The notes: generated by a model not told the origin, from the sequence alone. Shown: positions 36,153 to 45,687, counted from the first letter of the stretch. The stretch is 52,705 nt of DNA from an uncultured Candidatus Saccharibacteria bacterium (GCA_964556655.1 CAZKWY010000003.1:1-52705); one strand, 5' to 3'. Program-made: numbers and translations.

Positions 36153-36410
36153 TTATTCTTTGATGTTTAATAATTGGCTAATCCTTGCTTTATCAAAACC
36201 GACAATAATTTCTCCGTCTATTTCTGTTACCGGCACGCCCATTTGGCCTGATTTCTGCACCATTTCCTCTCTCCCTTTTTCATCTTCGGCCACATCAATA
36301 TAATCATAGGCGATACCATGCTCCTCTAAAAAATTCTTCAAAGTGACGCAGTAGGGACAAGAAGGCGTAGAAAAAACTCGTACTTTTTTTTGTTGGGACT
36401 GTTCTGCCAT
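36153..36410 (-). CDS. Glutaredoxin-like protein (YruB/NrdH type)
   Basis: CPYC, SGQMGVPV, VGFD. Confidence 0.92.
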   Translation of the reverse strand: MAEQSQQKKVRVFSTPSCPYCVTLKNFLEEHGIAYDYIDVAEDEKGREEMVQKSGQMGVPVTEIDGEIIVGFDKARISQLLNIKE

Positions 36411-36456
36411 AAAATGACAAGCAATCAGAAACACAAATAAATAATCGTCCCCGCCT

Positions 36457-36529: not shown

Positions 36530-37468
36530 TCAATCTCCTTGGCGATTTAATTGCTTATAAACGCTAAGAACCGCTTTAGCTCCTTCGCCAGCGGCAATAA
36601 TAATCTGTTTATGAGGAATGTTCGTCGCATCGCCGGCGGCAAAAATATTTTCTTGGGAAGTCTTATTGTGCTGATCAATAACTATTTCTTCAGCTTGATT
36701 CAATTCTACCACATTTTTCAATAAAGATGAATTGGCGACTGTGCCAATCTCTACAAAAACGCCCTCCACGGCAATCTTTTCTTTTTGCTCGTTTTCTAAA
36801 TCGGAATAAACCAGCTCTTCAACAAATTGACTACCCTTAATTTCAGACGTTCGGGCATTAAAAATAAGTTTTACTTTTTCGGCCTCCTTTAATCGCTCGC
36901 TAAAACATTCATCGCATTCTAAGCGAGAGCTTTTGGTAATAAGATAAATCTCCCGAGCGTATTTTAAAAGATCCAAAGCTGTTTCGGCGCCCGCGTTGCC
37001 CCCTCCAATGACAGCTACAGTTTTATCTTTAAACAAAGGAGCATCGCAAGTAGGGCAATAACTAACTCCCTTATTGGCAAATTCCGCTTCGCCGGGAAGA
37101 CCCAGTTTCTTATAACGCCTTCCTGTGGCAATAACCGCCGTTTTTGTCTGGTATTCCTCTGTTTCTGTTTTAATTGACAAAAAACCGTCTTTGTTAACAA
37201 CAACCTTTTCCGCCTTCTGATCCTCGGCAATGTTAAAATCCTCGCCCCGATAATTTTCCAGATGAGCAATCATCTTGCTGAGCAAGTCAGGACCAGCAAT
37301 AGACCTAAAGCCCGGGTAGTTCTCCACAAGGTTAGTCCAATTCATCTGGCCGTTCCAATCCTTAGTGATTAAAAGGGTGTTAATTCTTTTGCGCGCCGCA
37401 TAAATACCAGCGCTGATTGCCGCCGGCCCTCCGCCAACAATAATCAATTTGTACATTTCTTTAAACAA
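36530..37468 (-). CDS. trxB: Thioredoxin reductase family FAD-dependent disulfide oxidoreductase
   Basis: GGGPA, ENYPG, GVSYCPTCD, GGGNAG, FAAGD. Confidence 0.88.
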   Translation of the reverse strand: MFKEMYKLIIVGGGPAAISAGIYAARKRINTLLITKDWNGQMNWTNLVENYPGFRSIAGPDLLSKMIAHLENYRGEDFNIAEDQKAEKVVVNKDGFLSIKTETEEYQTKTAVIATGRRYKKLGLPGEAEFANKGVSYCPTCDAPLFKDKTVAVIGGGNAGAETALDLLKYAREIYLITKSSRLECDECFSERLKEAEKVKLIFNARTSEIKGSQFVEELVYSDLENEQKEKIAVEGVFVEIGTVANSSLLKNVVELNQAEEIVIDQHNKTSQENIFAAGDATNIPHKQIIIAAGEGAKAVLSVYKQLNRQGD

Positions 37469-37505: not shown

Positions 37506-38273
37506 TTAACAAAACTCTCCCTTATTAGCCGCATTAATGCTTTCCTGAGTATAGTAATCTAATTTTCGCGCTTGTTCTCTGCTAATTTTTTCGCAAGCAA
37601 AACCCCAATGGAACGAAATAAGATGGCCCTTCCTAAGCCCTTTTAAAAAGCTTTTTCCTCCAAGCTGATAAGTAATTTCGCCCCTTACCGTCTTTCCCAG
37701 ACAAATTTTTTCATTTTCTAAGATTAAAGGCCGATAAGCAACCACGATATTTTTCTTTTCTACTTTCTCAACTCTTCCCCAGTTAATACGGCATAAATCC
37801 ATACTAGCTAGAGTGTGAGCGATATCTAAATAGCCTGTCCTTTTCCAAACGCCAAGAACATGAAAATTATGGTGGGGCTTTGGCTTTAAAGATACTTTCT
37901 CAACCAACCTTCTAAAAGCAGGCAAGGCCATCTTCTTTTTCATCTCTAGGCTATCGGATAAATGCCTGTAAAAATTACTCTGATTAGCGTTTTCCAAAAG
38001 AGCATTGCCGATCCAATAAGCCTCTACCACTTTTTCATCAAAAGGATCTCTAATTCCATTAGCGCGAGCGATAAACTTAAGATAAGGATAAAGAGTTTGA
38101 AATTCTTTTAAAATCAAGGACAGTCCTTGGTTAGCTTCTCTTCTCTGGCAGTAGTAAAAAAGGTCTTGATTTTTGTCTGGACCGCAAAAAGTCAACCGGT
38201 TGGGCATAAAGGCATACCGCGCGCACCTTATCATTCCCTTTTCGCTAGACGAGATTTTGCTCCGCTTGATCAT
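37506..38273 (-). CDS. DUF6390-like protein with a HypC-like C-terminal region
   Basis: ARYAF.PN.L.FCGP, YPYL..IA, DPFD..VVEAYWIGN, PHH.FHV, C.I.WG, HWG.ACE. Confidence 0.75.
   Translation of the reverse strand: MIKRSKISSSEKGMIRCARYAFMPNRLTFCGPDKNQDLFYYCQRREANQGLSLILKEFQTLYPYLKFIARANGIRDPFDEKVVEAYWIGNALLENANQSNFYRHLSDSLEMKKKMALPAFRRLVEKVSLKPKPHHNFHVLGVWKRTGYLDIAHTLASMDLCRINWGRVEKVEKKNIVVAYRPLILENEKICLGKTVRGEITYQLGGKSFLKGLRKGHLISFHWGFACEKISREQARKLDYYTQESINAANKGEFC
38115..38129. repeat. Monomer of the GACWGTC palindromic repeat inside a CDS
   Basis: CAAGGAC-A-GTCCTTG, translated as QGLSL. Confidence 0.55.
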
Positions 38274-39150
38274 ATCTTTTTCTAAGGACTGGCCTCGCTA
38301 TCAAAACCACAGCTCCACAAATTAAAATCATCCCTAGCATTTGACCTGCTAAAACATTCTGGCCCAAGATAAAAAAGGAAAGCAAAGTAGTAATCGGACT
38401 GCCCAAAAGCAAAATCGCCGCCGCAACAGAGACATTAATATGTTTTAATCCCGAATACCAAGTAGCCACATAACCGAAGAGAAGAACTGAAGCAATAAGC
38501 AGCCAGCCAATTTGAGAAAGATTTAAGCTAAAAACAAGACCGGCTTGGCCGATAGCCAGCCAGAAAAGGACAATAAAAAAGGAACCAAAAAGCATTCTCC
38601 CTCCGATGACTAGGCGCGCCGGCAAATCTTTTAAAACATGCTTGCTCAAAACGCTTTCCCCGGCCCAAAGAAGGACGGCTAAAAAGATCAACAAATCTCC
38701 CCAGCCAAAATTAACTGAGCCTATCTGAAGCAAGAAAAAATTGCCTGCCAGCATAGTTAAGCCACCGATTAAAAATTCTTTGCTGATTTTTTCTTTTAGC
38801 AAAAACACCGCCAAAAGCGCGACGAAAAGGAACATCGTCTTATGGATAAAAGACCCTTGAGCGGCGCTGGTTAGAGAAAGCCCCTTGAAAAAAAGCAAAA
38901 AAGGGAGGGAGCCGCCGATCAGGCCAATACCTGCCAGCTTAGCCCACTGATCTTTCTTCAGCCTTTTGACCAACCGCCAATCTTTCATCATCAAAAGCCA
39001 GCTGATTGCCAAAGAAGCAACGATAATATTTTTAAGACCGGTGAAAATATACGGGTTAGCGACATTGACGCCAAATTTATTAATAAAAATAGCCAGGCCT
39101 GAAATAAAAGCCGTGCCTAGAATTAATAAAAATCCTTTTTGTTGTTTCAT
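38245..39150 (-). CDS. DMT/EamA family transporter
   Basis: About 10 TMs in two repeats; LLKEK loop. Confidence 0.9.
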   Translation of the reverse strand: MKQQKGFLLILGTAFISGLAIFINKFGVNVANPYIFTGLKNIIVASLAISWLLMMKDWRLVKRLKKDQWAKLAGIGLIGGSLPFLLFFKGLSLTSAAQGSFIHKTMFLFVALLAVFLLKEKISKEFLIGGLTMLAGNFFLLQIGSVNFGWGDLLIFLAVLLWAGESVLSKHVLKDLPARLVIGGRMLFGSFFIVLFWLAIGQAGLVFSLNLSQIGWLLIASVLLFGYVATWYSGLKHINVSVAAAILLLGSPITTLLSFFILGQNVLAGQMLGMILICGAVVLIARPVLRKRYDQAEQNLV

Positions 39151-39224
39151 GGTTTGCCTTTAATTAAGAATATTCTTTAAAAAAACTTAATGGTATTTTA
39201 GCATAGAAAAGGAAAAGACAAAAA

Positions 39225-39428
39225 TTACTCTTCGCCGGCTTCCTTTTTGATTTCTTTTAGCTGGTTTTCTGTTTCTTTTAGCCTTTGGCGGCACTCTTTA
39301 ACCAGTTTTAACCCCCTTTGATATTTTTTTAGTCCCTCTTCTAAATCAATGTCTTCTTGCTGAAACCATCGATTGATTTCCTCTATTTCTTGGTAAGCTT
39401 TAGTAAAATTAAATTTTTCTTTGCTCAT
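39225..39428 (-). CDS. xseB: Exodeoxyribonuclease VII small subunit
   Basis: F.....E.I.......LEE.L..Y.RG..L...C...L; follows xseA. Confidence 0.92.
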   Translation of the reverse strand: MSKEKFNFTKAYQEIEEINRWFQQEDIDLEEGLKKYQRGLKLVKECRQRLKETENQLKEIKKEAGEE

Positions 39429-39449
39429 ATTTTTAGCGCTTCTGCGCCG

Positions 39450-40784
39450 CTATTGTTTTTTAAATACTTTCTCCACTTGAGAGCCGGCCCGACCGTCGGA
39501 AAATCTTGTTTCTATCCGCTGGCCCTTTTTTAACTGGCTAACATGCTTGATAACCTTGCCCGAGCTTGAATCAGAAACAATGCTATATCCCTGCCTCAAC
39601 TTAAGCGCTGGGCTAGCCAAAAAGATTTTTTCTTTTTCTCTGGCTAGTTTTTGCCTGATTTTTTCCAGCCAAGAAAATCCGTTTTGGTGAAGCTCTTCTA
39701 AGTATTCTAGAGTATCTGACTTTTGTTGTCTAATAAGCCCTTCTATTTTGTAAAGATTGTTTAAAAAAAGCGCTTCAGTCTGATAAAAATTTTGAAAATA
39801 TTCCCTAAAAGAATTGTTCATAGCGTCAGCTAGATAAAGAAAGGATTCTTTTTTGCTTTCTATTTCCCCTGTGATTGCTTTTTCTATTTGTTCTTCTAAA
39901 AAGACTGTCCTTTGCTTGGCTAAAACAATTTTTTCCTTAATAGCCGCTGTCATGCTTTTTTCAAAAACAGGCATCTGCGACTGCGCCATTCGCCAAGGAT
40001 CGCTCAAAATTCTCGCCGCGTCCGTAGGAGTGGAAGCTCGCACATCAGCTACATAATCAGCTATGGTTTCGTCGCTTTCATGGCCTACGCCGCAAACGAC
40101 AGGCAGGCGGGAAGCAAAAATTGACCGCGCCACCGTCTCTGAATTAAAAGGCTGAAGACTTTCCCAACTTCCTCCTCCTCTGATTAAAATCAAAGCGTCT
40201 ATTTTCTTAGCGCTTTGATTAAACCAATCAATGGCTCGCTCAATTTCTTCTTCTGCCGATAAGCCCTCTACCCTGACATCATAGAAAAATATCTCAAAAT
40301 TAAAAGCGCCTAAATGCTTGATAAAATCAGGCAGCGCTCCTCGTCCGTATTGAGAAGTAATCAAGCCAATGGTTCGGCAAAAAGGCGGCAGCTTCCTTTT
40401 CCTCTCTAGGGCGAAAAAACCGTCTTCCCCCAAACGTTTCTTCAGCGCTTCATAGGCCCGCCTTAAAGCGCCTTCGCCAACCAGCCCTACTTTTTCTACC
40501 TGCAGAGTAAGGTCGCCTCTTTTAGGATAAACTTGGCAAGTTCCTTCAATCTTAACTTCTTGCCCGGGCCCTAGCTGGCAGCCGCTTTTATCTAAGTTTC
40601 TCTGCCAGGCAAAGCATTTCAAAACTCCCTCTTTTTTCTTGTCAAGCAACGAAAAAATAGTGTAATTAGGATAACGATTGATCTTTTCGCCAACTTCTCC
40701 TTGGACTATCACCCGATGCCTGATTAGGCTGTTAATAAATTCTATCAGTTCTTTAACGGAAAAAATTTTTTCTTGGTCTAACAT
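39450..40784 (-). CDS. xseA: Exodeoxyribonuclease VII large subunit
   Basis: OB fold, IGLITS, RGGGS.E.L..FN.E, GVGHE.D, TPT.AA, L.QGYS. Confidence 0.95.
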   Translation of the reverse strand: MLDQEKIFSVKELIEFINSLIRHRVIVQGEVGEKINRYPNYTIFSLLDKKKEGVLKCFAWQRNLDKSGCQLGPGQEVKIEGTCQVYPKRGDLTLQVEKVGLVGEGALRRAYEALKKRLGEDGFFALERKRKLPPFCRTIGLITSQYGRGALPDFIKHLGAFNFEIFFYDVRVEGLSAEEEIERAIDWFNQSAKKIDALILIRGGGSWESLQPFNSETVARSIFASRLPVVCGVGHESDETIADYVADVRASTPTDAARILSDPWRMAQSQMPVFEKSMTAAIKEKIVLAKQRTVFLEEQIEKAITGEIESKKESFLYLADAMNNSFREYFQNFYQTEALFLNNLYKIEGLIRQQKSDTLEYLEELHQNGFSWLEKIRQKLAREKEKIFLASPALKLRQGYSIVSDSSSGKVIKHVSQLKKGQRIETRFSDGRAGSQVEKVFKKQ

Positions 40785-40802
40785 TATTGAAATTTATTTA
40801 TT

Positions 40803-40967
40803 TTATTCCTTCTTTTTCTTTCTCGCCCAATTGGTCATACTAGAAAAACCTAAAAACCCCAAGCCAAGAGGAAATAATACCAGAAAAGGAAGAAAAGGCA
40901 AAAATATCCCCGCTAAGCCGACTAACACAAGGATAACGCCAATAATTTTTTTAAATACTCTTCTCAT
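40803..40967 (-). CDS. Small membrane protein (54 aa), absent from the ORF track
   Basis: MRRVFKKIIGVILVLVGLAGIFLPFLPFLVLFPLGLGFLG...KKKKE*; -10-like TGGTATGAT upstream. Confidence 0.7.
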   Translation of the reverse strand: MRRVFKKIIGVILVLVGLAGIFLPFLPFLVLFPLGLGFLGFSSMTNWARKKKKE

Positions 40968-41084
40968 TAGCTTCTTTTTATCATACCAGAAAGAACAAAG
41001 TGGAACAAAAAAATCAATAAATCAGGCCCTGACTTTTTAAAAAATATATTCCCAATAAAATTTATTTCTGTTATAATAGAATCA

Positions 41085-41303
41085 ATGTGTTTAGCTACTC
41101 CTGCCAAAGTAATAACCATTAAAAAAGATTGGGCCCGAGTAAAATCAGGTGACCATATCCATAGAGTTAATCTAGGCCTTTTGAAAAATGTAAAGAAAGG
41201 CGATTATTTAATTGCGCACGGAGAGCTGGCTATTAATAGGCTTAATAAAAAAGAAGCTGAAAAAATCATTAAACTGATTGAAAATTACCAAACTGACCAA
41301 TAG
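41085..41303 (+). CDS. hypC: Hydrogenase assembly chaperone HypC/HybG/HupF
   Basis: MCLA.P.KV, V.KGDYL..H. Confidence 0.92.
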   Translation: MCLATPAKVITIKKDWARVKSGDHIHRVNLGLLKNVKKGDYLIAHGELAINRLNKKEAEKIIKLIENYQTDQ

Positions 41304-41306
41304 ACT

Positions 41307-41332
41307 AAAACAGCGGACTAGTCCGCTGTTTT
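41307..41332. terminator. Bidirectional intrinsic terminator
   Basis: Perfect palindrome AAAACAGCGGACTAGTCCGCTGTTTT between hypC and the large subunit. Confidence 0.8.
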
Positions 41333-41360
41333 TGATAACCCGCGACACAAGGCCATAAAG

Positions 41361-42587
41361 CTAATGGACTGAGCAAGTGATACAAGGATCGTAAGCGCGC
41401 ACTAGCATTACTAAAAGCCGTTCCAATTCTTTTCGCGAGCGGTTTTTTGTTTGATCAAGAAGCGCTTGGGCGCTTTTTTCAATGGAAGTAAGGTTTTGCA
41501 CGGTCGGAGTAATAATGTTGGCTTCTTTAATCAAACTTTCTGCTGAAGCTGGCTCAGTTTTATCCAAAATCACTTCATGGTAAAGCCCTCCGCGAGGAGC
41601 TTCTATGACGCCAATACCCTTAAAAGGCGCTTTTGATCCAGGTTTTTTAATCGGCTCTTCTAAGCTGCCTTTTAAAATGCTTTTGACAGTTTTTTCCGCT
41701 TCCTTGTAATAATAAAGAATTTCTATTGCTTGAGCCAGATTATTGTGAAAAGGATTGGCTAAATCAAGCCCGTATTTCTTATCATAATTTTGATACACAG
41801 CCAAGCGCGCCAGAGCGCCTACTATCATTTCTTCTCCCCTGTATTTGCCAAACTTCGCTGTAGAATAACTTCTCACTTCTTCCTCAATATCTTTTTTATA
41901 GTTGTTAACCGGAGAAAATTGCTTCTTTCGCGGGCTAATAGAAGATACTGTAGCAATGGAATCTTTTTCCTGTGCTGCCATGATAAGCTCTACGCGCAAA
42001 GGCGGGTAATCAAGCTTGCTGGCTAACGCTAGCGATCTTTCAGCCGCTTTTCTTGTTTTTCGAAGTTTATCGAGCAAAATTTCTAGCTTTTCTTTATTCG
42101 GCATTTTATAAAATCCGCCAATGGCAGAGCTGGTTGGATGAGTATGACGGCCGCCAGCCAGATCCACAATCATATCCGAAACCTCTTTAAGCGCCAGAGC
42201 GTCCTTAAAGGCCGGAGGATTTTTTTTAGCCAGTTCTGTCGCTCGATCAATGCCTAAATAGTCAGGCAAAGATAAAAAGAATAAATGAAGGGTGTGGCTT
42301 TGAATCATCTGACCGCACTGCATTAAGTAGCGCAAAGAAGATGCCTGACGGCTAGGCTTAATGGCTAAAGCGTTTTCCAGAGCGTTTAAAGAAGCAAGGT
42401 TATGGGCCGTAGGACAAACTCCACAAATACGCGGCGTAATCCAGTGCATCTCTTGAGCGGTTCTATCAACCAGCATGCCTTCAAACAGCCTTTCGCCTTC
42501 ATAAATATTAAGTTTAACTTGGCCCTTTTTCCAGTCAATAGTCAAATTGCCATGTCCTTCAATTTTTGCGATAAAATCTTCTTTCAT
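41361..42587 (-). CDS. [NiFe]-hydrogenase large (alpha) subunit, group 3b-like
   Basis: IEGHG, L1 RICGVCPTAH, EAPRG, TPT, L2 YDPCITCSVH followed directly by stop. Confidence 0.95.
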   Translation of the reverse strand: MKEDFIAKIEGHGNLTIDWKKGQVKLNIYEGERLFEGMLVDRTAQEMHWITPRICGVCPTAHNLASLNALENALAIKPSRQASSLRYLMQCGQMIQSHTLHLFFLSLPDYLGIDRATELAKKNPPAFKDALALKEVSDMIVDLAGGRHTHPTSSAIGGFYKMPNKEKLEILLDKLRKTRKAAERSLALASKLDYPPLRVELIMAAQEKDSIATVSSISPRKKQFSPVNNYKKDIEEEVRSYSTAKFGKYRGEEMIVGALARLAVYQNYDKKYGLDLANPFHNNLAQAIEILYYYKEAEKTVKSILKGSLEEPIKKPGSKAPFKGIGVIEAPRGGLYHEVILDKTEPASAESLIKEANIITPTVQNLTSIEKSAQALLDQTKNRSRKELERLLVMLVRAYDPCITCSVH

Positions 42588-42589
42588 TT

Positions 42590-43336
42590 TTAATGGTTAT
42601 TTTTATTTTTTTTCATAGCCTTATTCAAAAACATGGAAAAATAGCGGTCTATTTCTTTTTTGTCAGTAATTTGGCTAAGAGCTTTCATCAAATTATCTAT
42701 TTCTGGCTCTTCGCGCAAGCCAAAGCATCCATAACAAGGTGAACCGCCTGAAATGCATATTGCCCCGCATCCTCCTTGAGTGATAGGGCCGAGACAGGGC
42801 TTTCCTTCTATTAAACGGCAGCGATTGCCCGCCATCTTACACTCTAGACAAACTGAATAAGAGCGGTATTTTGGCATTTTGCCGGCCAAAAGGTCCTCCA
42901 TCACTCTCAATACTTCTTCGCCATTAACCGGACATCCATGAACAAGAAAATCAACTTTGACATAAGCCGAGAGAGGAAGAGCGTCAATCCCCCGGGGGCG
43001 ATATTCACTACCATATATCTTCTTATACCACTTTTTTCTTTCTTTTTTATCAAGAATGGCCGGAATGCCTCCTAGAGTCGCGCAAGTGCCAAGGCCAATA
43101 ATCATCTTAGAGGTTTTCCTTAGCTTTTTTAGCAGGCTAACCTCATGGCCGGTGATAGGCGTCCCTTCAATAATAGTAATGTCAAAAGGGCCTGGCTGAT
43201 TGTTTTCTTGGCCTAAGCGCCAATTAATAATATGGACTCTTTTTTCAAGAGCTAATAACTTTTCCCTCAATCCGACCAGCTCTACCTGGCATCCTTCGCA
43301 GTCTGTAAAGTCATAGATGGCAATTTTTGGCTTCAT
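42590..43336 (-). CDS. [NiFe]-hydrogenase small (delta) subunit
   Basis: CEGC, IEG, GTCA..GG, GCP, C.EC, CLGP.T..GC.A.C, C.GC. Confidence 0.92.
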   Translation of the reverse strand: MKPKIAIYDFTDCEGCQVELVGLREKLLALEKRVHIINWRLGQENNQPGPFDITIIEGTPITGHEVSLLKKLRKTSKMIIGLGTCATLGGIPAILDKKERKKWYKKIYGSEYRPRGIDALPLSAYVKVDFLVHGCPVNGEEVLRVMEDLLAGKMPKYRSYSVCLECKMAGNRCRLIEGKPCLGPITQGGCGAICISGGSPCYGCFGLREEPEIDNLMKALSQITDKKEIDRYFSMFLNKAMKKNKNNH

Positions 43337-43341
43337 AAAAA

Positions 43342-44166
43342 TTAATCCCAATTTTTATCTATTTCATCGAAATAAAAGACAGGCCCATCCTGGCATACGT
43401 ATTTGTCTCCAGTTAAGCAATGCTGGCATTTGCCTACTCCACATTGCATCTTTCTTTCCATGCTGACGAAAATGCGACGATCAGAAATGCCCAATGGATG
43501 AAGTACTTTTCCCAGAGCGTCCATCATGGGACCCGGCCCGCACATAGAAGCTACCGCGTTTTTGGGATCGATCTTAATTTCACTGATTAATTCCGTAACA
43601 AGGCCAACATGACCTTCCCAGTCCTTAGTTGGCTCATCAACTGTCAAAAGCACTTTAATGCTTTTGCTCCATTCTTTGAGCTTATTTTTCATTAAGAGAT
43701 CGTCTGGCGTTCGCGCCCCATAAATGAGATAAACATTATTAAACTTATCTCGATTAGCAATAATATATTCGATCAAAGAGGCAATGGGCGGAATACCGCA
43801 TCCGCCAGTCGCCATCACCATATCTTTGCCAGCAATAAAATCCAAAGGGAAGCCATTGCCATAAGGGCCGCGCAGAAAAATTTCGTCTCCTTTTTTTAAA
43901 TTATGCATCGCATTAGTAAGCGTGCCAGCTTTTCTAACCGCTATTTCGAAATAAGAATCTTCGTAAGGAGAAGAAGAGACGCCAAAAGGCGCCTCTCCAT
44001 AACCAAAATGACTGACCAAGATAAATTGCCCCGGCACAAAAGCCAATCCTTGTCCGTTTTTATCAAATAATCCTTTTTCTTTTTTCAAACGAAAAAGCTT
44101 AACTGTTTCAGAAAGATCTTGCGTTTTGACAATAATGACCTTAAATGGCTGATAAATATTTTTCAT
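43342..44166 (-). CDS. Hydrogenase gamma subunit (FAD/NAD(P)-binding, 2Fe-2S)
   Basis: PGQF, RGPYGNGF, GGCG..P, CGP..M, MQCGVGKCQHC...C.DGPV. Confidence 0.92.
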   Translation of the reverse strand: MKNIYQPFKVIIVKTQDLSETVKLFRLKKEKGLFDKNGQGLAFVPGQFILVSHFGYGEAPFGVSSSPYEDSYFEIAVRKAGTLTNAMHNLKKGDEIFLRGPYGNGFPLDFIAGKDMVMATGGCGIPPIASLIEYIIANRDKFNNVYLIYGARTPDDLLMKNKLKEWSKSIKVLLTVDEPTKDWEGHVGLVTELISEIKIDPKNAVASMCGPGPMMDALGKVLHPLGISDRRIFVSMERKMQCGVGKCQHCLTGDKYVCQDGPVFYFDEIDKNWD

Positions 44167-44175
44167 AGAGATATT

Positions 44176-45102
44176 TTAATAATTACTGACTGCTTTCTTG
44201 TAATCGGCCACGATCCTTTTTAAAACTTCTTCTATTTTTATCCCTGCCGGACAAAAATTAGTACAACGAACGCATCCTACGCACTGCGCCTTGCCATATT
44301 CCTTATAGGCACGAACAAATTTATGATAATACCAGTTATAGTAACGTTCTTTAATGGTTTTGTGGAAATTATGGCCGCCAGAAATCTTAGCAAAGTCAGG
44401 CAAGGTACAAGCATCCCAATAGCGGCAACGAGAACACTCCTTATCATCTATGCGAACTCTATCCTCGAAAGAAAAACAATGACACAGCGGACAAACATAG
44501 GTACAATTACCACATCCAAGACATTTTTCTGCCAGCTCGTCCCATATTTTATGTTCGGCCCTCCAAGACCAAGCTACCGCCTCTGCCAGCAACTCAGCAT
44601 CTAAAAGCATTTTCCTTAGCTCGCTTAACTGGGAATAGTTTCCTTTTGCTTTTTTAGGCGCCGATTTCCTAAAAAACTTTCCCTTGGCAATTTCCTTTCC
44701 TTTTTTGGTTAAAACCATAGCTTCATATTCCTGAGCGCTAATTTTTTTAAAGACGACGTCGCCTCCCGGCGCTATTTTGAAATCATCATCAGTCAGACCT
44801 ATGAGAAGAGATTGGTTTCTTCTTCGCCAATAATAGAAATCCTGCTGAGGTTTTTTCATAATTTCATCCAATTGAGTCATCGCCTCAAGATCAACAAGAT
44901 TCAAGCCAAAAACAGCAATCTTTTCTTGGTGCTCGGGAACTTTTAATCGACCGCCTTTTTTGTCAAAAACAAAAGTTTTTTCTTTGGGCGGAAAAAAATA
45001 TTGTTTTGGCGGCATATATGTTTCTCTAGCGTCTATTACTCTATATTTCTTGCCCAACTCGTTAAGCCAATCTTTAATTTTGCTTTCTTTAATAACTAAC
45101 AT
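44176..45102 (-). CDS. Hydrogenase beta subunit (4Fe-4S dicluster)
   Basis: CLGCGNCTYVCP.C.C, R.WD.C, HKF, CVGCVRC...CP. Confidence 0.92.
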   Translation of the reverse strand: MLVIKESKIKDWLNELGKKYRVIDARETYMPPKQYFFPPKEKTFVFDKKGGRLKVPEHQEKIAVFGLNLVDLEAMTQLDEIMKKPQQDFYYWRRRNQSLLIGLTDDDFKIAPGGDVVFKKISAQEYEAMVLTKKGKEIAKGKFFRKSAPKKAKGNYSQLSELRKMLLDAELLAEAVAWSWRAEHKIWDELAEKCLGCGNCTYVCPLCHCFSFEDRVRIDDKECSRCRYWDACTLPDFAKISGGHNFHKTIKERYYNWYYHKFVRAYKEYGKAQCVGCVRCTNFCPAGIKIEEVLKRIVADYKKAVSNY

Positions 45103-45134
45103 TATTTTTATTATATCACACAACCCCTAAAAAC

Positions 45135-45174: not shown

Positions 45175-45687
45175 TTAGGCATGTTCCCTCCTTTTTTTGG
45201 CATTAACATAGTTGCCGTACAAAACGATCTTTCTAACCCGCCTATTCTTTTTAGAATCAAGGAAACAAACATTATCCTTTATTACCACGATACCTGCTCT
45301 AACCATCTCTTCAAAAAGAACAAAGCGAACATCCTCTTCTCTAATTTCTAATCTAACTATTCTCCTAACAAGCTCATCCGCATTTATTTTTTTCACGCCA
45401 AGAACTCTAACAATAGAAAGAGCGATTAGATGGACCAAATGATGGCATTCTCCGCAGAGAAGATGAATTGCTTCGGGACAGAGATAAGAGATACCGCGAT
45501 GTCCAGAAAAATCCCAATGATGTTTGAAAAAAGTTTCTGGATCTCCTCTTGCGCCACAAGAGGGCAAACAGCAGCATGACCTGCCATAATCCAAAGCAGA
45601 AAAAATTTTTACTTGCGCCGAAGTCAGCCCGCGAGTGCGGCGCTTTCTGATAGAAGTCCTTCTGGCAGCTCTGTTTTTTAAACTCAT
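45175..45687 (-). CDS. Hypothetical protein with a degenerate HNH-like zinc motif
   Basis: C....CG, HH, LLCGECH..VH; strong AAGGAGG RBS. Confidence 0.55.
   Translation of the reverse strand: MSLKNRAARRTSIRKRRTRGLTSAQVKIFSALDYGRSCCCLPSCGARGDPETFFKHHWDFSGHRGISYLCPEAIHLLCGECHHLVHLIALSIVRVLGVKKINADELVRRIVRLEIREEDVRFVLFEEMVRAGIVVIKDNVCFLDSKKNRRVRKIVLYGNYVNAKKRREHA

Follow-up and report, generated by a model that had tools for sequence, protein, structure and literature searches.

HypC, the iron-side factor in [NiFe]-hydrogenase maturation, carries a cysteine that must follow the removed methionine, and hypD, whose product is marked by Fe-S cluster cysteines, CGxH-type motifs and a Rossmann-type domain, normally lies directly after hypC in the operon. 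For the [FeFe]-hydrogenases, CO and CN are made by HydG. Excerpts of current reviews call the six Hyp proteins necessary for every [NiFe]-hydrogenase (PMC12134894). This study deals with a DUF6390 protein encoded in a 52,705-nucleotide stretch of DNA (hereafter the window) from an uncultured Candidatus Saccharibacteria bacterium (GCA_964556655.1 CAZKWY010000003.1:1-52705), where its gene lies near those of a [NiFe]-hydrogenase. Members of this family possess a C-terminal domain that is homologous to HypC by profile comparison; they keep invariant cysteines and histidines, belong to hydrogenase operons, are mutually exclusive with hypD and hypE, and are linked, in some cases fused, to a transporter. 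Judging from sequence comparison, we put at roughly 60% the probability that DUF6390 acts as iron scaffold or carrier in a [NiFe]-hydrogenase maturation route independent of HypD, HypE and HypF; that it is a hydrogenase accessory protein of one kind or another is highly probable.

The closest published description is that of Jaffe et al. (2020; PMC7304191), excerpts of which report group-3b clusters 'hyd1/hyd2' in the Candidate Phyla Radiation (CPR) with a neighbouring family 'fam002' that includes some hypC-like members. These operons are the same as the DUF6390-bearing CPR operons, and the excerpts contain no mention of missing hypDEF, DUF6390, a linkage to EamA or a maturation role. A literature search found no paper naming DUF6390 (the tables of Jaffe et al. 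may carry the family under another number), no link of DUF6390 or EamA to [NiFe] maturation and no report of hydrogenase genomes devoid of hypDEF; a connection between DUF6390 and hydrogenase maturation appears not to be in print. One Joint Genome Institute protein cluster among the 120 relatives listed is auto-named 'hydrogenase maturation factor.'

The protein is encoded by a single-copy gene in the window's genome, and its match to the family profile covers positions 2-239 of 244 with a score far above the cut-off of 25 bits:

37506-38273, minus strand: DUF6390 protein, 255 amino acids (aa), two domains (PF19927, E 6.9e-60, 203 bits)
37824-38246, minus strand: N-terminal domain, about residues 10-150, with the motifs YCGP (Cys30), VVEAYWxGN and PHHxFH (His135, His138)
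37545-37793, minus strand: C-terminal HypC-like domain, residues 161-243, with Cys161 (CRIxWG) and His222-Trp223 (GDxVSxHWG)

A hidden HypC-like domain had been proposed in the first-pass annotation on the basis of an alignment made by eye. Plain BLASTP of DUF6390 against HypC is not significant (E 0.2, in a different register), though profile methods reproduce that alignment exactly. Using hhalign, the DUF6390 C-terminal alignment matches 28 CPR HypC sequences with a probability of 96.1% (E 3.7e-9), and the full DUF6390 and HypC alignments match with 94.1% (E 1.2e-7); both lay residues 161-243 onto HypC 2-66, bringing Cys161 onto Cys2 and His222 onto the HypC histidine in GDxxxxH. The controls gave 0.1% for reversed HypC, 1.6% for the N-terminal domain against HypC and 0.1% for DUF6390 against 13 CPR HypD sequences, to which it thus shows no homology. 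When a profile of 91 DUF6390 sequences was run against 177,635 distinct PDB sequences, three of the four matches at E<=10 were HypC structures (2z1c, E 0.032; 3vyr, E 0.036; 3d3r, E 1). At E<=0.1, Pfam HupF_HypC (PF01455) matches 18 of the 91 members, the best at 4e-7, and no other family outside DUF6390 matches more than one; sub-threshold PF01455 matches lie within the DUF6390 open reading frames (ORFs) of eight other genomes. By these comparisons, the C-terminal 83 residues (161-243) are homologous to HypC and, as had been claimed, retain equivalents of both its metal-ligand cysteine and its conserved histidine. Indeed, DUF6390 keeps the GDxVxxHxG motif (GDxVLVHxG in HypC), in which His222 never varies, together with the helix that follows (xxEAxxL-like), and its gene also resides in hydrogenase operons. 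The differences from HypC are substantial: 255 aa instead of about 75, a cysteine located internally at residue 161, after a conserved Asp-x, rather than at residue 2, a 13-residue insert in the barrel region, and an extra 150-residue N-terminal domain with its own invariant Cys and His. The window's protein itself has no PF01455 match at E<=0.01 or E<=0.1 and remains below the Pfam HypC threshold.

Conservation was assessed over 291 unique full-length sequences, drawn from the cluster representatives and from 80 genome, 20 Chloroflexota and 80 soil-metagenome loci. Cys30, Gly89, His135, Cys161, His222 and Trp223 are invariant in 291/291, and His138, Cys227 and His134 are kept in 266, 262 and 247 sequences, respectively. 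FCGP and HHNFH, which had been singled out as potential metal ligands from the window's protein, are genuine family motifs, given the conservation of Cys30, His135 and His138. With two cysteines and two histidines shared out between the domains, a single metal site is suggested. The N-terminal domain profile returned only chance matches from the PDB (E 0.43 and 1.7), hence no detectable relative of known structure.

The family comprises more than 1000 sequence clusters, in which stand-alone forms dominate; a PadR, GntR, XRE or ArsR-type DNA-binding domain is fused N-terminally to DUF6390 in 5 of the 150 representatives listed. In a tree, the DUF6390 sequences group according to operon type (52 changes vs 108 in shuffles), a result not used as evidence of co-evolution since kin share labels. 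Two apparent peculiarities were rejected: long "fused" DUF6390 frames in Chloroflexota are over-extended ORFs, and selenocysteine at the single internal TGA or TAA of some genome matches is discounted because full-length stop-free ORFs span the domain, so that these codons are probably the genes' own stops. A shorter and divergent DUF6390 of 224-253 aa was also observed in family f77 (L283:8303-9583 in genome G171; L282:7847-8521; L280:11044-11718), with a C-terminal domain nearer to HypC (..CFxxCGKV.., ..GDLVxIH..); G171 has an additional 168-aa DUF6390 fragment of the ordinary type adjoining EamA.

The window's genome (713,875 bp, 39 contigs, 93.2% complete) contains hypC as its sole canonical hyp gene, in a single copy. 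HypD (PF01924), HypE, HypA, HypB, HycI and HydG were searched for across it and none was found, and the search for HypF matched only Sua5, acylphosphatase and TsaD-like fragments. The earlier statement that hypC was the only hyp gene, made for the window, therefore extends to the whole 714-kb genome. Among public sequencing runs, three DNA runs from one microbial-mat study contain the window, one of them being perhaps its origin, and no RNA run was listed.

The same gap recurs in other Patescibacteria, of which 301 genomes were sampled, most of them, like the other genomes censused, being metagenome bins. DUF6390 occurs in 27 of these genomes and the [NiFe] large subunit in 64; the large subunit is present in 27/27 genomes with DUF6390 vs 37/274 without it. 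The two genes are less than 2 kb apart in 20 of the 27, 3-11 kb apart on the same contig in five (including the window) and on different contigs in two. Among the 64 hydrogenase-bearing genomes, HypC was found in 55 (the four members of family f36 carry DUF6390 without HypC), HypD in 15, HypE in 13, of which 11 exceed the cut-off, and HypF in 14, the last three in essentially the same genomes. None of the 27 DUF6390-bearing Patescibacteria yielded HypD, HypE or HypF. DUF6390 spans 16 families and HypD six, with no family common to both.

A second phylum, the Chloroflexota, was reached via locus L138, and 251 genomes were sampled with a large-subunit threshold of E<=1e-5. Of these, 22 carry DUF6390, 144 the large subunit and 117 HypD. 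The large subunit is present in 22/22 DUF6390 carriers; HypD was found in none of these 22, and HypE over the cut-off in none, five of them giving paralogue-level HypE matches of 89-102 bits. HypD occurs in 113 of the 122 other Chloroflexota with a large subunit. These totals include two unpublished genomes with HypD and without DUF6390 (G342 and G477), the exclusion of which changes 251, 144, 117 and 113 to 249, 142, 115 and 111. In five DUF6390-bearing Chloroflexota, three of which have contigs of 1.4-2.2 Mb, no HypB over its cut-off and no HypF was found (0/5 each), and HydG was found in 0/5 when the window's genome took the place of one of the five (G462). Over the two phyla combined, hypD occurs in 0/49 DUF6390 genomes, hypE over the cut-off in 0/49 and hypF in 0 of the 32 searched. 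The distribution of DUF6390 is thus closely tied to hydrogenases, as the first-pass annotation supposed. Since the genomes of the Chloroflexota carriers, 1.3-7.7 Mb in size, reach 7.7 Mb, genome reduction does not account for the pattern. Part of the earlier interpretation stands, namely the HypC-like domain with its Cys and His, the conserved module and a genome where hypA, hypB, hypD, hypE and hypF were not found; the term "minimal" understates the reach of the system, which is not confined to reduced genomes.

A separate observation concerns hydrogenase-bearing CPR genomes without hypD and without DUF6390, in which an unannotated ORF of 200-260 aa occupies the DUF6390 slot, following hypC, EamA or both, or else close to a SemiSWEET-like transporter:

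L278:6398-7174: slot ORF of genome G008, 258 aa
L276:3033-3698: slot ORF of genome G040, 221 aa
L277:6515-7165: slot ORF of genome G037, 216 aa
L279:5443-6054: slot ORF of genome G202, 203 aa

With hhalign probabilities of no more than 2.4%, these ORFs were rejected as members of DUF6390; despite the lack of detectable homology, inspection by eye reveals end motifs in them that resemble those of HypC.

The 80 best genome loci, taken at one genome per species and nearly all from CPR bacteria, have the large subunit within 8 kb of DUF6390 in 59 cases and the small subunit in 61, with HypC found by phmmer in 27. Typical one-strand CPR operons read hydB-hydG-hypC-eamA-DUF6390-small subunit-large subunit (L101, L104, L109, L128). 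Over all loci, CPR and Chloroflexota alike, the partner enzymes include group-3b, CPR 'hyd2', 1h-like and other group-1/2-like hydrogenases. DUF6390 takes the position after hypC that is normally held by hypD; as it follows hydrogenases of whatever class and sits right after hypC, it behaves like a hyp gene. In 44 of the 80 loci, those with a 'hyd2'-type hydrogenase of short small subunit, an ORF of about 125 aa (FGNPDL..DSLPL...HDFD) was seen directly after DUF6390 (e.g., L089:8727-9104, L095:8723-9094); it is a very divergent HycI-like endopeptidase (PF01750, E 3.4e-4 and 5.1e-5).

Comparable arrangements exist outside the CPR. Of 20 Chloroflexota loci, 15 encode the large subunit within 8 kb of DUF6390, 10 have an adjoining EamA and eight have HypC directly upstream (seven by phmmer, L193 by Pfam). 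Among the partners are large subunits of 600 aa neighboured by NifU, DUF5947 and DUF6084, which we read as group-1h-like, and one full-length PF00374 enzyme (764 bits). Of 35 soil contigs measuring 6 kb or more, 25 have the order small subunit-large subunit-NifU-DUF5947-DUF6084-x-hycI-hypA-(hypC)-DUF6390, and phmmer with two HypD sequences as queries gave no match on any of the 35. A canonical HypC (MCLGIP...GDWILVHMGFAL) lies in the gap before DUF6390 in 10 of the 12 soil contigs checked.

DUF6390 therefore resembles HypD in its operon position after hypC and in a complementary phyletic pattern (both in 0/49 genomes), and would presumably, like HypD, give a cysteine to a shared metal site. 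It differs in being unrelated in sequence, less than half the size and devoid of Fe-S cluster cysteines and of a Rossmann-type domain. The free HypC adds a further indication: its histidine is kept in 15/15 sequences from HypD-bearing CPR genomes vs 9/28 of those encoded beside DUF6390, a loss that, together with the never-varying His222, is consistent with DUF6390 having taken over iron binding from HypC.

Another indication comes from the radical-SAM (S-adenosylmethionine) maturases HydE and HydG, which in some CPR genomes immediately precede DUF6390 in its [NiFe] operon, HydE being fused to HypC. Such a HypC::HydE fusion (roughly 425-435 aa where the ORF was read; above the TIGR03956 cut-off), followed by HydG, occurs in 8 of the 64 hydrogenase-bearing Patescibacteria, all without hypDEF. 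Three of these loci are:

L049:1501-2802: HypC::HydE and HydG, genome G130
L280:8264-10922: HypC::HydE and HydG, genome G153
L281:5703-8356: HypC::HydE and HydG, genome G066

In G153, where HydE reaches 281 bits (cut-off 254.6) and HydG 613 bits (cut-off 312), the two genes form part of the [NiFe] operon, with the gamma-subunit gene on one side and DUF6390, which comes directly next, on the other. Three genomes of one genus differ only between hypC and DUF6390: G153 has HypC::HydE and HydG in this slot, G171 has EamA and its extra DUF6390 fragment, and G112 has nothing. The presence of HydG in a [NiFe] operon without hypDEF and beside DUF6390 suggests that DUF6390 accepts ligand-bearing iron, and HydG/HydE would be a possible alternative source of CO and CN. 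They are unrelated to DUF6390 in sequence and were not found in the window's genome. The ORFs adjoining HydE/HydG in G153 and G066, considered as HydF or HydA, were rejected, being PGK, enolase and DinB. A literature search found nothing linking HypC-HydE fusions to [NiFe] maturation.

EamA lies in the flank of 63 of the 80 loci, nearly always immediately upstream and on the same strand, and single EamA-DUF6390 polypeptides occur in at least three protein clusters (P0007; P0278, 566 aa; P0253, partial) and at one genome locus (L115, 563 aa, with Pfam scores identical to P0007). In the window, the start of the DUF6390 ORF overlaps the end of EamA by 29 nucleotides, which suggests translational coupling; the true start may be the ATG at codon 14. 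The first-pass observation that DUF6390 directly follows an EamA gene accordingly describes a frequent feature, backed by adjacency and fusions, and the hypC/EamA/DUF6390/hydrogenase module is conserved, as the co-occurrence check found.

In the mechanism proposed here, Cys30, His135, Cys161 and His222 would form an inter-domain metal site holding an iron unit destined for the active site, so that DUF6390 would play the part of the HypC-HypD scaffold. The unit would pass to the large subunit either directly, via the HypC-like domain, or via the free HypC, and the membrane transporter encoded beside or fused to DUF6390 (EamA here) would feed it a precursor. A more far-reaching version, which we regard as possible and advance tentatively, is a second route to the NiFe(CN)2CO centre without HypD, HypE and HypF, with DUF6390 as the central iron scaffold and ligand-bearing iron supplied by HydG/HydE or, through a dedicated transporter, from outside the cell. 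If so, in the samples searched it would serve 27 of the 64 hydrogenase-bearing Patescibacteria (about 4 in 10) and 22 of the 144 Chloroflexota (about 1 in 7), including 1h-like enzymes of the kind that consumes atmospheric H2. The 49 genomes concerned, several with megabase-scale contigs, carry intact-looking hydrogenase operons in two phyla with no hypD found, and all have DUF6390. Should DUF6390 take the scaffold role, possibly as a new pathway, it would mean that CN and CO can be bonded to iron by a new chemistry, explain how the enzymes of many uncultured fermenters and soil H2-oxidisers mature, allow [NiFe]-hydrogenases to be produced in other hosts from far fewer genes and give a function to a domain family of more than 1000 clusters.

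Several points weigh against a scaffold role. Neither HypD nor detectable DUF6390 is present in 22 of the 64 hydrogenase-bearing Patescibacteria and in 9 of the 144 Chloroflexota. Kinship inflates the co-occurrence counts: because DUF6390 and HypD share no family, the trait being fixed at family level, independent events are far fewer than genome counts, and the preponderance of metagenome bins also counts here. The cysteine matching HypC Cys2 is internal. With no HypD homology and no Fe-S cluster motif, DUF6390 cannot copy HypD chemistry. Nor was a source of CN and CO found in the window's genome, and the mechanism is incomplete as long as nothing provides the scaffold with ligands. Finally, the DNA-binding fusions suit a sensor, and the ATP-binding cassette (ABC) transporters described next suit plain metal supply.

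Some Chloroflexota and soil loci encode importers after DUF6390 on the same strand: a Nik/Opp-type (SBP_bac_5) ABC system in L189, L190 and L193 (L190:8717-12254; L193:804-4687), and an Fbp-like ABC system (SBP_bac_11/6, double permease, TOBE ATPase) in L196, L197 (L197:8891-12526) and L204, the latter type being present in 11-16 of the 61 soil loci having downstream ORFs. A transport-coupled metallochaperone would account for them: DUF6390 would take Ni (or Fe) from the importer to the hydrogenase and replace HypB or SlyD, not HypD. The frequent EamA neighbours, the invariant pair of Cys and pair of His, the hypA-hypC-DUF6390 gene order, the resemblance of the helix-turn-helix fusions to metal sensors and the failure to find HypB in the window's genome or in 5/5 Chloroflexota checked are all consistent with this explanation, which we nevertheless consider unlikely, as it leaves unexplained the absence of hypD and hypE from 49/49 DUF6390 genomes, the presence of a domain resembling an iron-side factor and the decay of the free HypC histidine beside DUF6390, and as the transporter substrates are guessed from family names only.

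A rather improbable alternative, the one put forward in the first-pass annotation, is that the transporter imports a ready-made iron carbonyl/cyanide unit from neighbours or a host, DUF6390 receiving it at the membrane and loading the enzyme, in a cell that makes no CN or CO. The lack of detectable HypE, HypF and HydG in the window's genome, the EamA-DUF6390 fusions and the exchange within one genus of HypC::HydE plus HydG for EamA or for neither would agree with scavenging, as would the dependence of CPR bacteria on other cells reported in published abstracts. The only support for the import step, circumstantial in kind, is the transporter in the slot that HydE/HydG occupy elsewhere. We know of no such import of a preformed unit for any [NiFe] enzyme. 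Moreover, 17 of the 80 CPR loci have no EamA in their flank, the G112 cluster has neither EamA nor HydE/HydG, and DUF6390 also serves 1h-like operons on soil contigs and in Chloroflexota of 2-7.7 Mb, where EamA is often absent and the habitat probably oxic; these aerobic-soil-type group-1h operons, with ABC systems or no transporter, are a poor fit for an oxygen-sensitive iron carbonyl cyanide. Slightly less probable still is an assembly chaperone or regulator without cofactor chemistry, which would hold the apo-large subunit (as a HypC paralogue or HupK-like protein) or sense a ligand to control expression, the hypDEF functions being met by something unrelated. In favour of this reading, binding of the large subunit might be all that the HypC-like domain does, no enzyme signature is seen in the N-terminal domain and DNA-binding fusions exist. 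Against it, the Cys and His invariant in both domains point to a metal or covalent site, the family consists mainly of stand-alone forms and perfect exclusion of hypD in two phyla needs a reason.

The remaining genes of the window's locus center on a minus-strand four-gene [NiFe]-hydrogenase operon coding for the beta, gamma, small and large subunits, with hypC oriented tail-to-tail to it:

44176-45123, minus strand: beta subunit, 4Fe-4S dicluster (PF17179, E 3.1e-28)
43342-44166, minus strand: gamma subunit, FAD/NAD(P)-binding and Fe-S domains (PF00175, PF10418, PF00970)
42590-43351, minus strand: hydrogenase small (delta) subunit, 253 aa (PF01058; best NCBIfam ShyD/HydD)
41361-42587, minus strand: [NiFe]-hydrogenase large subunit, 408 aa (PF00374, E 3.1e-34)
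41085-41303, plus strand: hypC, 72 aa, with Cys2 and His45 (PF01455, E 2.4e-18; TIGR00074, 51.5 bits vs cut-off 48)
39225-40784, minus strand: xseB and xseA (exonuclease VII), unrelated to the module, between hypC and EamA (PF02609, PF02601)
38245-39150, minus strand: EamA/DMT transporter, 301 aa, two repeats (PF00892, E 8.9e-38, 130 bits)
36530-37468, minus strand: thioredoxin-reductase-like (TrxB-like) flavoprotein, directly after DUF6390 (PF07992, E 2.8e-46)
36153-36434, minus strand: glutaredoxin (Grx), after the TrxB-like gene (PF00462, E 2.4e-19)

The large subunit has RICGVCPTAH near its N-terminus and both the N- and C-terminal CxxC nickel-iron motifs. It ends exactly at the His of DPCxxCxxH (...DPCITCSVH), without a C-terminal extension to cleave, which fits the failure to find a HycI-type endopeptidase in the genome. 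The enzyme is group-3b-like by its best NCBIfam matches, the sulfhydrogenases HydA/ShyA, which stay below the equivalog cut-offs. A promoter-like site lies at 41049-41077, next to hypC. The closest relatives (L076-L081, L096) show hydB-hydG-small subunit-large subunit, hypC and eamA-DUF6390-trxB-grx without xseAB, with hypC abutting EamA in L076-L081; because their module is contiguous, the 2.8-kb gap in the window is taken as a local insertion or rearrangement. TrxB occurs in the flank of 11 of the 80 loci, in the same order in the closest relatives, and Grx in nine; the TrxB-like neighbour may supply reducing power. Just upstream of the hydrogenase operon, at 45175-45687, lies a Cys/His-rich ORF of 170 aa (..CCCLPSCG.., ..CGECHHLVH..) without a Pfam or NCBIfam match, separated from the operon by a strong terminator-like hairpin at 45168-45141.

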